From: Escherichia phage vB_EcoM_Lutter | Reading direction: 5' to 3' (one strand) | Sequence record: NC_054924.1 | DNA: 64,000 nucleotides | Shown here: piece by piece, positions 5,278 through 46,483 of the stretch | Position numbering within the stretch: position 1 is the stretch's first letter | How the letters are laid out: the number at the start of each line of letters is the position of its first letter | Notes under the pieces: generated by a model | Seen by the model: the letters and a program-made list of their open reading frames with translations, nothing else | What the model was told of the DNA's origin: nothing | Databases searched by the model: none | Program-made: the position numbers and the translations under genes

Positions 5278-5296
5278 AAAGGGCCGAAGCCCTTTA
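5278..5296 (-). terminator. CUUCGG tetraloop hairpin (terminator-like) at a-gt 3' end
   Basis: AAAGGGC-UUCG-GCCCUUU on minus-strand RNA, overlapping a-gt stop. Confidence 0.45.
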
Positions 5297-6496
5297 TTTT
5301 GTAATAATGTCAAACTGTTCTTTAAAGCAGAAGCTTGAATCTTGATGCTGATACAAAAATTCATAAGCTTTTTCGCGTTCACGGTCATAAAGAGCTCGGT
5401 CAGATGACAGTTCTTTAATACGCTCAAATGTTGATTCCATGTCATTTTCATCAAACCAAACGATACCGCTATCATGAGAAATTAACGGAGTATTATCAAC
5501 ACGGAATTTTAAATTTTCACCAGTAGATTTCCAAAATACTGGAATTGTTCCGCATGCACCAAGCTCGAGATGAGTGTATTCTAAAGAACGTTGTAGATAT
5601 TTTTTATCTAATTTACTCAGCTGATAACCAAATCCGGATTTACTCATACGTTCAAGCATTTCGCTATTTACATAACGGTCGAGAATTTGCGTTGACAAAT
5701 TAGGAGCAATTTTAATTTGGTCTACTTGATGAAGACGATAATACTCGTATGGAATTCCTTTTTCTTTAATAGGAATGAACGCTGGAGAACGTTCCAGACC
5801 TTCCATAATAGTACTCAATCCCGCAGGTTTAAGATGTTTTTCATGAAAATCAAACATCTGATAAAAGCCTTTCCATGTAGTAGTACGACCAATCCAACGG
5901 TTGATATTCATGTTAATTTCAGAAACATCTTTCCAGTAGGTTGATCGAACCTTCGCAATATCCATAGGAGGCTGAAAGTTATATACGGTCGGTGCTTCTT
6001 CAATATCATCAAACAGAGAAACTGTTTCTGGATACCATTCTTTCATCAGAACTTTATTAAAATCGCCATTATCAGAATGGCTAAAAATAACATCAGCTCG
6101 ACGAACAGTTTCTTCTAATCCCAAATTTCGGCGCAAAGAAAGAGAAGAATGGTCATGTTGATAAACTACAACACGAACCGAAGGTTTAATGTTATCAATA
6201 ATTTTTTTATAGTTATTAATAGTGTCTTCTTCGACTGAAGTAGCAGGAACTGAATTGATAATTAGAATATCACAATCATTTACCAGCTTAAGTGTTTTAT
6301 CGTATTCTTTTGCCAATAAAACCGGAATTGAAAATGACTTATAATCATGCGCGCAATTACGAGTAAATGATTTATCTTTAGCATAAACCAAAGTTACTTC
6401 ATGACCATTTTTAATAAACCAATCACGTTGCTCAAGAGAAAATTTAGTTACGCCACAACCTTCAAGACCTCGAGCCATAAAAATGCATACTTTCAT
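5294..6496 (-). CDS. a-gt: DNA alpha-glucosyltransferase
   Basis: 400 aa, same length and position as T4 a-gt; glycosyltransferase-like. Confidence 0.8.
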   Translation of the reverse strand: MKVCIFMARGLEGCGVTKFSLEQRDWFIKNGHEVTLVYAKDKSFTRNCAHDYKSFSIPVLLAKEYDKTLKLVNDCDILIINSVPATSVEEDTINNYKKIIDNIKPSVRVVVYQHDHSSLSLRRNLGLEETVRRADVIFSHSDNGDFNKVLMKEWYPETVSLFDDIEEAPTVYNFQPPMDIAKVRSTYWKDVSEINMNINRWIGRTTTWKGFYQMFDFHEKHLKPAGLSTIMEGLERSPAFIPIKEKGIPYEYYRLHQVDQIKIAPNLSTQILDRYVNSEMLERMSKSGFGYQLSKLDKKYLQRSLEYTHLELGACGTIPVFWKSTGENLKFRVDNTPLISHDSGIVWFDENDMESTFERIKELSSDRALYDREREKAYEFLYQHQDSSFCFKEQFDIITK

Positions 6497-31865: not shown

Positions 31866-32315
31866 TTATATACAAAATTCGCGAAAGCGATAAACCTCTG
31901 AACTTGCTTCCTTTATTACCAATAAACTGCGCACAGAATCAGTAAATAAACGAAAACGTATATCATCATTAGAATAACGCGAAAATTCCTTTTTAATGTT
32001 ATTTGCAGAAATTTTAGCGTAAGCTGAAGTATTAGAAAGAACAATAACTGTTCCGCCATCATACAACCAATTAGCAGCAAAGTTAGTCACAGCAATTGAT
32101 TTACCAGATTGACGTCCACCATCTAGTCGAAGTGTGCAATACTGTTTGAGTAAGTCTTCAAATGGTGGGATATAATCGTTTTTACAAATTTCTTCTACTC
32201 TAGCATCAGAATGGTGTGTAAAAGCATTCATCAGGGATAGATAAGGACCAGTTAAAAATGTTCTCATTTTGTTATCTCTAAATTTGGGCCATTCCGTGGC
32301 GCGTGAATTGTCCAT
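31866..32315 (-). CDS. hypothetical protein with P-loop-like motif
   Basis: 149 aa; GGRQSGKS. Confidence 0.45.
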   Translation of the reverse strand: MDNSRATEWPKFRDNKMRTFLTGPYLSLMNAFTHHSDARVEEICKNDYIPPFEDLLKQYCTLRLDGGRQSGKSIAVTNFAANWLYDGGTVIVLSNTSAYAKISANNIKKEFSRYSNDDIRFRLFTDSVRSLLVIKEASSEVYRFREFCI

Positions 32316-32444: not shown

Positions 32445-33023
32445 TTAATTACCACGGGCTGCATTAGCAACGGCATAAGCGTACTGAACATTAGCGTCCT
32501 TAAACGTACCTTTAGAGGTATCTATTTCTGCCTTAAAGCCGCCTTTAGCCATAACATCGGCAAATTCTTTACGGAAAGCCATTGCATCAAGACCTTTCCA
32601 TGATGATTTGTGCTTAGCGAATTCAAGACCAGCGTAGTTGACAGCCTTAGCTAATTTATTATCAATGACCCATTTACCGGCTTTAGGCACAAACTTCGGG
32701 CCTTTTTGTTTAGAGAACAGTTTTAAATTCCAGCGACGAAGATCACTGTCGGCTTTAACAAAAGCTGCGTCTAAGTTACTAGCAACAACATCTTCAATAT
32801 GAGCAAATTTAAGTCCGTCAACTTCAATATTTAAATCGGTACGCCAGCGAAGTCCTTCCCAAGCGAAAGCTTTAAAGTCAGAAGCCTTTGTAGCTAAGTA
32901 TCGTTCAATAGGAGCTGTTTTAGGGTCAAAGCCGTTTCCCGATCGATAGGTCCACTCATCTTTATTAATGCCTTTGGCCTTTTCCACAGAAGCTTCAGCG
33001 ATAAATTCTTTATACGTTTTCAT
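32445..33023 (-). CDS. head internal protein with capsid targeting sequence
   Basis: 192 aa; N-terminus MKTYKEFIAEA. Confidence 0.7.
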   Translation of the reverse strand: MKTYKEFIAEASVEKAKGINKDEWTYRSGNGFDPKTAPIERYLATKASDFKAFAWEGLRWRTDLNIEVDGLKFAHIEDVVASNLDAAFVKADSDLRRWNLKLFSKQKGPKFVPKAGKWVIDNKLAKAVNYAGLEFAKHKSSWKGLDAMAFRKEFADVMAKGGFKAEIDTSKGTFKDANVQYAYAVANAARGN

Positions 33024-33053
33024 TTTTGTTTCCTTGTTTGTTTTGATAGAGTA

Positions 33054-33082
33054 ATTATACCATATTAATACTTAAGCGTAAA
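33054..33082 (-). promoter_or_regulatory. sigma-70-type promoter upstream of internal protein gene
   Basis: TTTACG-17-TGG-TATAAT. Confidence 0.5.
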
Positions 33083-33086
33083 CCGT

Positions 33087-33348
33087 TTAAGCTTCACCGC
33101 CAGAAATAATTCCGAAGTTGTTAAAATCGTATCCAATATCGTCAACATCTACTTTAGGACTTGTAGCAACATAAGCAATTTCACTGCGTTTTGCATAGGT
33201 GTTGATTTCTTTACCATCACCACCTAAGAAAAAAATACCCATTACGTTTTAATGAGCCAAAATCTTCGGCATCACCAACGAAAGCTTTAACTTTAAATTT
33301 GGGGCCTTTGGCATCTGCTTCAGCGATAAATTCTTGATACATTTTCAT
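33087..33348 (-). pseudogene. frameshifted internal-protein gene
   Basis: MKMYQEFIAEADAKGPKF... halts after an A7/T7 run at 33229-33235; one fewer base gives an ~86-aa ORF to the TAA at 33087. Confidence 0.5.
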
Positions 33349-33354
33349 TTTTCC

Positions 33355-33768
33355 TTAGTAAATTGATTTACCATAGTATTTGTACCAAGTCGGACGTTGA
33401 GCAATTTTTTCATCTAAGCGTGCTTGACTTATCGCAATGGACGCTTCGGACGGGACATAATTATTACGAAATTCGGCAGGGATGTCGGAAATATCCTGGA
33501 CTGTCGTGTCCTTGATTTTGAAACCACGTTTCAAGCATTCGGCGATTAGCTCGATTTGTCGTAAACGTAAAAATTCAAGTTTGTCGTAAAAGAATGTTAC
33601 GTGACCTGTGCCTAAGATAAATGTTGGAGAGATTTTAAAATCCTTTACACGTTTACCGTTTTGAACATGTTTACGGACTGCACCAAATACGCGTGGTAAT
33701 TCACGATACTCAGCCATAAGATGTTGGTCGGTCAGTTCAGAAACAAGTGTTAAATTGATACGAGTCAT
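33355..33768 (-). CDS. denV: endonuclease V (pyrimidine dimer DNA glycosylase)
   Basis: 137 aa from [12 protein letters not shown]...; T4 DenV size. Confidence 0.88.
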
Positions 33769-33827: not shown

Positions 33828-35068
<1,241 letters not shown>

Positions 35069-45206: not shown

Positions 45207-46031
45207 TTAGATATTTGACCAGACTTTGTTTGCAGAGAAACGTTTTCCTTTTGAAACGAACTGCTGAAGTGGCATTAATACAACGTTCGCCCAGTCTTTC
45301 GGGGCGATTTCAACAAGGCTACCCATAATATTACCGGGTATATATGCCTTAATCATTTGGTCTGCACCCCTAAATCCTTTCACTTGACTCCAATCAATTT
45401 TTAATTTCGTTTTATTAGTAATAGTAGGTGTATTCGAATATTGCTTTAAAAGCTCTTCTAGAAATTGCTGACGAGCTTTAGGTGGAATATAGTGCAAGTT
45501 TAATCCGTACATTAAATTATGCTTACCTAAACCAAGGTAAATTATCAAAGGAAATTTATCCCAGTAAGGAAGAGTTTCCTTATGTTTAGCATCATAAGCA
45601 AAAGCATATATTCGTCCCGGCTGCGGGCGAACAACTTTATGTCCTTTTACTTGCTTAATAGTTTCAGCAAACCACTTTCTGGTTTTATTATTAATTGCTG
45701 CACCTTCATTACGAATTTTATCACGCAATGTTTGCCTGAATGAATTTATCATAAGCAGTTGTCTTTCTTGCTTATTGAGTTTATTCATTGGTTTTGATTC
45801 AAGCTTTTGAATCTTTTCAGCCGTTTTAATTCCTGAAGCATATTTTGACATTGCCGAAGTAAACGTAGAGTATTTGATTCCTCTTTCTTCAGCAAATTGC
45901 TTTCCTGTCATTCCTTTTGCTTTGGCCTTTTTATATTCAAGACCTATCTGAATCCATTTCTTTTCGTTTAATGATTGCTTAACCTTTGGAACTTGGGGAG
46001 TGCTTTCATTAATTATTTGAAAAATAGCCAT
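45207..46031 (-). CDS. 2: DNA end protector gp2
   Basis: 274 aa; T4 gp2 length and position. Confidence 0.85.
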
Positions 46032-46483
46032 TATGCCCCCTTAAAGCCAAGAGCTCGTAATCCATCTTCTGTTAGAATTCTAAATTTTATTCCACGCTTT
46101 TCAGCTAAAGATTGTGCTGCTTTCCATTTGTCGGTATTAACGGAATATGTATAAATTTCATTCATAAATCTTTTCTTCGCTGCAGTTGTTAGATGTGCTG
46201 GTTTAACTGGTGGTTGTGTTTCTTTTTTAGGTTTTATTTCAATAAAAAATTCTTGTCCAGAAGAATCTTTCATCCAAATATCCATGAAGTATCTACGTTT
46301 TTTCCCTTCGGCATTACAAAAATAAGGAATTACTGCTGTTTCACTACCCCATGCAATAATTTCTGGATTTTTATCTAACCATTCAAAAAAGAATTTTTCC
46401 CAATTTGATCTATACGTAATTTTTTTAGGGTCACCTCTATATTTTGATATATTTTTAGGAACCCATTTTCCAGAATATGCCAT
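46031..46483 (-). CDS. 4: head completion protein gp4
   Basis: 150 aa; last minus-strand gene before strand switch. Confidence 0.85.

Follow-up and report, generated by a model that had tools for sequence, protein, structure and literature searches.

Internal head proteins of phage T4 are carried into the capsid through their first 10 residues, the capsid targeting sequence (CTS), in which residues 4 and 7 serve targeting and residues 8 and 10 serve processing by the gp21 protease (PMC9026906). They are dispensable on standard or laboratory hosts (PMC9026906). The set of internal proteins is hyper-diverse and thought to counter host nucleases (PMC3012670), and IPIII, described as acting in host range or anti-defence, is easily lost if unselected (PMC9391042). 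In T4, the gene order is e, ipIII, ipII and denV.

The classical e and rII hot spots of T4 correspond to Streisinger-type slippage frameshifts at A/T runs. A homopolymer or a CUU-AGG at the junction of two reading frames is also found in genes using programmed slippage or frameshifting, such as Thermus dnaX (A9), Shigella mxiE (T9), prfB (CUU-UGA) and Ty1 (CUU-AGG-C). The window analyzed here (64,000 nt of Escherichia phage vB_EcoM_Lutter, NC_054924.1) harbored an internal head protein gene interrupted at a run of seven T. Like the Streisinger-type frameshifts, this lesion lengthened a 6-nt A:T run of a T-even phage by one base, and the length of the run was polymorphic (T5, T6, T7) among close relatives; those of T4 were laboratory mutants, whereas the present one belonged to the standing natural variation of wild phages. 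The locus probably represents a real allele, circulating in nature, in which a small accessory gene of the RB69ORF125c family of internal head proteins has lost its function or leaks at most weakly.

An interrupted internal head protein gene downstream of denV

Genes on the minus strand of the window followed the order e lysozyme (34106-34594), a gene for a 93-aa internal head protein of RB69ORF127c type (33828-34109, phrog_3499), an intact denV encoding endonuclease V (33355-33768), the broken gene, and an intact gene (32445-33023) for a 192-aa IpIII-like internal protein (phrog_5341, E = 6e-118) with the CTS MKTYKEFIAE. The broken gene was located near e and denV and flanked by other CTS genes, the 93-aa gene being part of the same internal-protein cluster. 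It shared with the T4 internal proteins this location in the e-denV cluster, along with dispensability and high turnover, but displayed no sequence similarity to them outside the CTS. The 98-aa ORF called mechanically at 33828-34124 started at a TTG and overlapped the end of e; the true start of the 93-aa protein is probably the ATG at 34109, and its N-terminus displayed a divergent CTS-like sequence, as in RB69ORF127c.

Direct reading of the sequence placed an ATG at 33348, opening a 43-codon ORF (MKMYQEFIAEADAKGPKFKVKAFVGDAEDFGSLKRNGYFFLRW; 33217-33348, minus strand) closed by a TGA at 33219-33217. Its product, the N-terminal part of an RB69ORF125c-type internal head protein, was made of 40 native residues followed by out-of-frame LRW. 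The frame was lost at a run of seven T on the coding strand (33229-33235, A7 on the plus strand), where intact alleles harbored T6 or TTCTTT. From this run the +1 frame was open down to a TAA at 33089-33087, and the resulting out-of-frame remnant (33087-33228, minus strand) encoded the conserved C-terminal 46 residues (LGGDGKEINTYAKRSEIAYVATSPKVDVDDIGYDFNNFGIISGGEA). The first-pass annotation had described, between denV and the 192-aa internal protein gene, an ORF beginning with a CTS and stopping after 43 codons just past the A7 run, and had proposed that removing one base would restore a protein of about 86 residues ending at the TAA at 33087. Its coordinates proved correct, and the in silico deletion of one T reproduced the 86-aa protein, which matched, far beyond chance, an ORF in one piece in 213 of 215 phage records (tblastn).

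A Shine-Dalgarno-like AAGGA (33352-33356, minus strand, by direct reading) overlapped the denV stop codon 3 nt 5' of the ATG, which implies that the gene is co-transcribed and coupled with denV. Late promoters (TATAAATA) were located upstream of e, at 34608 and 34621 on the minus strand, and a sigma-70-type promoter-like site (TTTACG-17-TG-TATAAT, 33054-33082, minus strand), recognized by consensus match only, was found between the broken gene and the 192-aa gene. Polarity of the frameshift on the downstream IpIII-like gene is thus unlikely, since that gene probably has a promoter of its own 3' of the broken gene.

In GenBank, a second "internal head protein" (QLF82375.1) is annotated in Lutter, identical to a 51-aa ORF of the window that started from an ATG within the gene, in the +1 frame (MGIFFLGGDG..., 33087-33242, minus strand). 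The 41-aa version of the truncated product, starting at the second ATG, is annotated as QLF82380.1. The 51-aa ORF is probably not expressed on its own, since it displayed neither a CTS nor an obvious Shine-Dalgarno sequence, being preceded in direct reading by UUAAAACGUA-AUG.

The first 10 residues of the gene (MKMYQEFIAE, 33319-33348, minus strand), followed by Ala11, were identical at nine of 10 positions to the CTS of T4 IPII and IPIII (MKTYQEFIAE, also followed by Ala; translated from NC_000866), as expected from the first-pass reading of this N-terminus. Residues 4, 7, 8 and 10 were all conserved, including Y4 and F7. Residues I8-A9-E10 followed by A11 reproduced the cleavage context of T4 IPII and IPIII and the pattern of the gp21 prohead protease (I/L-x-E, then A), with predicted cleavage after Glu10. 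In one otherwise intact allele (L050, about 1315-1335), the first ATG was lost (AACGAAAATG vs ATGAAAATG); this allele would start at Met3 (MYQEFIAE...), with a CTS two residues shorter.

Once repaired, the protein was 92-99% identical to the copies of RB69 (92%), IME340 and PTE-Eco15, with a best match at 98.8% identity (E = 1e-48), and was homologous over its full length to the phrog_2667 "internal head protein" family (E = 5e-20). The unrepaired ORF spanned family residues 1-40 only. This family includes RB69ORF125c (RB69p125, NP_861815.1, "internal head protein"), VR7ORF127c and S16 gp70.1. The first-pass annotation had suggested a decaying paralog. Judged from its sequence and context, the gene is instead an ortholog of RB69ORF125c, because it occupied the same position directly after denV; it also shared with that family the CTS and the 86-aa length, and differed from it by one extra T. 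The suggestion stood insofar as the allele appears to be a loss-of-function one, but no further decay was found and a near-isogenic sibling with T6 was obtained (see below). The CTS suggests that proteins of the RB69ORF125c family are packaged into heads. No report of a phrog_2667 family protein in the head or injected with DNA was found in the literature, a Pfam search with the protein gave no match, and a PDB sequence search gave nothing meaningful. An AlphaFold2 model built on a three-sequence alignment reached a pLDDT of 54, too low for use.

Intact copies of the gene were under purifying selection, as displayed by Nei-Gojobori dN/dS values of 0.08-0.2 between those of Mosigvirus, Gaprivervirus and Gelderlandvirus, and of 0.25-0.45 among those of close relatives. 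The motif GDAEDFGSLKRNGYSF, which spans the frameshift site, was nearly invariant in orthologs. It follows that the 46 conserved C-terminal residues cut off by the frameshift belong to a protein that is functional when intact.

Authenticity and distribution of the T7 allele

Homopolymers are well-known error sites in sequencing, and the first-pass annotation had listed a homopolymer error among the possible causes of the frameshift, in which case the true genome would carry T6 and an intact gene. No T7 was found among GenBank phage isolates in the searched copy, which excludes Lutter's own record (MT682714). All 24 GenBank phage matches to an 81-mer around the run were one base shorter (one of them two bases shorter), and the otherwise identical T6 allele occurred in seven distinct phages in the same search. 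PTE-Eco15, the closest isolate, differed in this gene only by T6 instead of T7 and by one SNP.

A second private frameshift in the same genome, 1.3 kb downstream, also spoke for an error. It affected a vs.8-like gene (31866-32315, minus strand), with an indel at about 31924-31927 due to a T3 instead of a T4 run on the coding strand (TGTGCGCAGTTTATTGG). This gene encoded 195 aa in PTE-Eco15 and was represented in the window by a 149-aa ORF followed by a frame change. Among the fetched loci, the T3 state was restricted to the window and its Logan twin (L032).

The sequence data left little room for such an error. The Lutter genome was obtained by MiSeq sequencing (2x300) at 97x coverage and contains 8 tRNAs (PMC7471380), which those of the window match. 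The contig independently assembled in Logan from the same run (SRR12226697) matched the window at 100% identity over 3,126 nt, T7 included, and reproduced the second frameshift. At least 10 contigs obtained with other samples and assemblers carried the identical allele as well, unrelated Illumina metagenome assemblies among them. A general homopolymer-error signature across the window was ruled out, as only 2 of 106 ORFs of relatives were truly split in it and only 31 gaps separated it from PTE-Eco15 over 64 kb. A sequencing or assembly artefact is therefore extremely improbable, and the seventh T was regarded as genuine.

The plus strand had no other A7 than the run at 33229-33235, and homopolymers of at least 7 numbered only three, this one included, in the 64 kb, where 54 A6/T6 runs were counted. 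The two others, T7 on the plus strand at 6202-6208 and 46420-46426, were located inside intact minus-strand ORFs (5294-6496 and 46031-46483). Compared with the 54 runs of 6, runs of at least 7 looked strongly avoided in the window.

The exact 43-aa product was encoded on two ENA metagenome contigs and its 41-aa version on nine contigs. A check at the DNA level placed the T7 allele on 2 + 9 + 1 contigs (ENA and Logan short-read assemblies), the ENA contigs including several accessions that may belong to one study. The allele was distributed over three haplotypes and in several distinct strains. Haplotype A comprised the window and its Logan twin. Haplotype B encompassed seven ENA and Logan contigs, distinguished by 5-6 SNPs in the flanks and by an additional 104-aa CTS gene on the downstream side; it was not a single strain, as two of its members differed by 23 mismatches over 3,126 nt (L033 vs L034) and two others by 17 over 3,658 nt (L011 vs L012). 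Haplotype C was represented by one contig (L017, ERR11042183) with an RB69-like background in the gene (Ile, GGC).

The 104-aa CTS gene (phrog_3966; 852-1166 in L011) was present or absent by genome between the broken gene and the IpIII-like gene (32994-33047 in the window vs about 852-1200 in L011). The boundaries of the insertion fell inside the conserved CTS codons and the promoter/Shine-Dalgarno region, which suggests that cassettes are exchanged through recombination between the CTS sequences they share. In addition, RB69ORF124c (90 aa; 1897-2169 in L002) looked like a 3'-frameshifted version of this gene, ending with NRFAAESLPSYW where the 104-aa gene ended with NRFAAKVFRRIGNKLYDAYSKNFPKE. 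From this comparison, RB69ORF124c would be another broken internal-protein gene, in a reference genome.

A further set of loci was collected using the exact denV protein as bait, a sample unbiased with respect to the broken gene. It included a 170-kb metagenome scaffold (L053) with T6, from which the window differed only by the T run and one intergenic SNP over 2,215 nt. T6 and T7 thus coexist on near-isogenic backgrounds, and the event that separates them was either very recent or recurrent.

A comparison with orthologs, proposed as a check in the first-pass annotation, showed that intact single ORFs of relatives carried T6 or TTCTTT. Most orthologs harbored TTCTTT and no tract; RB69 was among them and reads Y-S-F, while the T6/T7 background reads Y-F-F. 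The T7 state was limited to a few very close strains, more than 200 orthologs being single ORFs. In one sub-lineage, a Ser-to-Phe change (TCT to TTT) would first have turned the ancestral TTCTTT into T6, to which replication slippage, the presumed cause of the frameshift, would have added one T. The ribosome would then read ...NGYFF-LRW-stop and release a 43-aa product with the CTS and without the conserved C-terminal 46 residues; if packaged, this product would be trimmed to 33 residues. Loss of function of the T7 allele is the expected outcome of such a truncation.

Decoding of the T7 run

The downstream frame was open in all T7 alleles, as expected for a young allele, which also fits continued low-level use. 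Full-length protein could still be made from the T7 allele by programmed or adventitious recoding, a reading that appears very unlikely. One route would be +1 ribosomal frameshifting at UUU-UUU-CUU-AGG, where a CUU followed by AGG, a rare codon in E. coli, is reminiscent of Ty1 and prfB. The other would be RNA-polymerase slippage dropping one U from the U7 run. The first route is consistent with the intact +1 frame past the run and with the resemblance of CUU-AGG-N to the Ty1 heptamer. For the second, slippage of E. coli RNA polymerase is detectable from T7 (PMC6260861), amounting to about 5% at T7/8 and to about 10% deletion at T8 (PMC6260861).

The site itself was unconserved, relatives carrying a single frame with T6 or TTCTTT. 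No stimulatory RNA structure was found around it (z = +0.46 vs shuffles), nor did reading of the sequence display a Shine-Dalgarno-like element 3 nt upstream, unlike in prfB, and the phage tRNA-Arg(UCU) weakens the pause expected at a hungry AGG codon. Ty1/prfB-like programmed +1 frameshifting was rejected, as both the conserved two-frame layout and the stimulators were missing. Known sites of programmed transcriptional slippage use runs of about 9 (PMC1088944), typically at least 9 and conserved, whereas the present run counted 7 and was unconserved. In contrast to dnaX, mxiE, prfB and Ty1, the junction of the two frames was not conserved, it lacked stimulators, and the ancestral state was one uninterrupted ORF.

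Recoding would at best provide a few percent of the product. Leaky rescue at this level by RNA-polymerase slippage is possible, and the allele may be a hypomorph rather than a null, because T7 is the shortest T run with measurable slippage of the host RNA polymerase. Such leakage is compatible with the preferred reading of a circulating, at most weakly leaky loss-of-function allele.

Repeated disruption of the gene in T-even phages

Other lesions were found at or beside a 12-nt segment, GGGTATTYTTTC. A reduction of the adjacent G3 to G2 occurred in three backgrounds and 16 contigs, T5-type -1 alleles were displayed by ECO07P1 and one contig (L031), in two backgrounds, and a TT deletion was carried by UFV13, whose RefSeq entry likewise lists two halves as "internal head protein". 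Outside this segment but still within the gene, FL23, FL44, JM10 and Pu-Krd-SF2/SF5 shared an AA insertion, and later frameshifts occurred in P0045, P0046 and P0049. Deletions were of several kinds, some in-frame and bounded by short repeats (P0044, L045), others larger and producing fusions (P0051, P0052), and one removing almost the whole gene (L047). In Ozark, the sister isolate of Lutter, the internal-protein locus was different and the gene was absent. In the G2-allele lineage (L019-L025, about 1326-1500), the loss of about 298 nt from within denV left an out-of-frame remnant (ATGACC joined to CGTCCGAAG...), so that both denV and the internal-protein gene were lost.

The gene was disrupted in about 6% of the approximately 110 distinct isolate records inspected, and 2 of the 10 architectures in the denV-anchored sample lacked a functional copy. 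Gapped pattern scans for the hotspot returned two loci in IMG/VR, one in JGI metagenomes and none in GTDB genomes, which contained too few Mosigviruses for a census, and a related-locus search of IMG/VR returned three loci. A homologous-protein search gave 11 cluster representatives, too coarse for allele frequencies, but it showed other truncated forms. The frameshifts grouped at the T-rich segment hint at a hotspot of slippage and could reflect more than neutral decay, but the short products were listed from a protein cluster built on the 43-aa fragment, and this sampling was biased toward the GGGTATTYTTTC site.

This variation also bears on whether mutations in the T6/T7 tract and the adjacent GGG reversibly turn an injected protein ON and OFF, by which phage populations would hedge between hosts against whose defences the protein helps and hosts that sense it or in which it serves no purpose. 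The first-pass annotation had considered a slippage-prone switch, and the tract was polymorphic (T5/T6/T7) among close relatives. Tract length varied between near-identical genomes, both between the window and the T6 scaffold (2 positions over 2,215 nt) and between haplotype B T7 and PTE-Eco15-type T6. T7 and G2 were each seen in three haplotypes and T5 in two, T7 strains persisted in several samples, and the tract was created by a non-conservative Ser-to-Phe change inside a conserved motif. Other observations did not favor a switch, as the tract was absent from most orthologs, which retain TTCTTT, and recoding signals were lacking. A T6 tract was unremarkable against the 54 A6/T6 runs in 64 kb, so that the tract was neither conserved nor longer than the background. 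Deletions have moreover eliminated the gene irreversibly, a pattern closer to plain loss than to switching, and recombination could have carried a single T7 allele across backgrounds. A reversible switch is accordingly regarded as unlikely. In its most explicit form, GGG-TAT-TTT-TTC would be a contingency site with an ON state (T6) and several OFF states (T5, T7, G2), of which T7 would leak a few percent through RNA-polymerase slippage; this too seems doubtful. If it held, both states would be present at all times in a phage population, allowing rapid adaptation to hosts that need the protein as a counter or that sense it.

The loss-of-function reading thus remains the preferred one, in which the T7 allele is an ordinary young frameshift allele that reveals no new mechanism. 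Its persistence would be explained by relaxed host-specific selection, the loss being tolerated wherever the host pressure is absent, because members of this hyper-variable cluster are injected along with the DNA, can be spared on many hosts and, where their function is known (IPI, IPIII), act as host-specific factors of counter-defence or host range. Repeated breakage in nature fits a dispensable, host-specific accessory gene.

In the annotation, what is given as two short "internal head protein" CDSs, of 41-43 aa and of 51 aa, is a single broken 86-aa gene cut in two, for which a frameshifted pseudogene or a disrupted allele would be a more fitting description than two proteins. Near-isogenic natural T6/T7 pairs, such as Lutter and the MUNK18-1 scaffold, provide material for probing the function of the protein. 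More broadly, a conserved internal-protein gene has been lost repeatedly in wild T-even phages through many different lesions, which is the pattern expected of host-specific counter-defence cargo such as IPI and IPIII.
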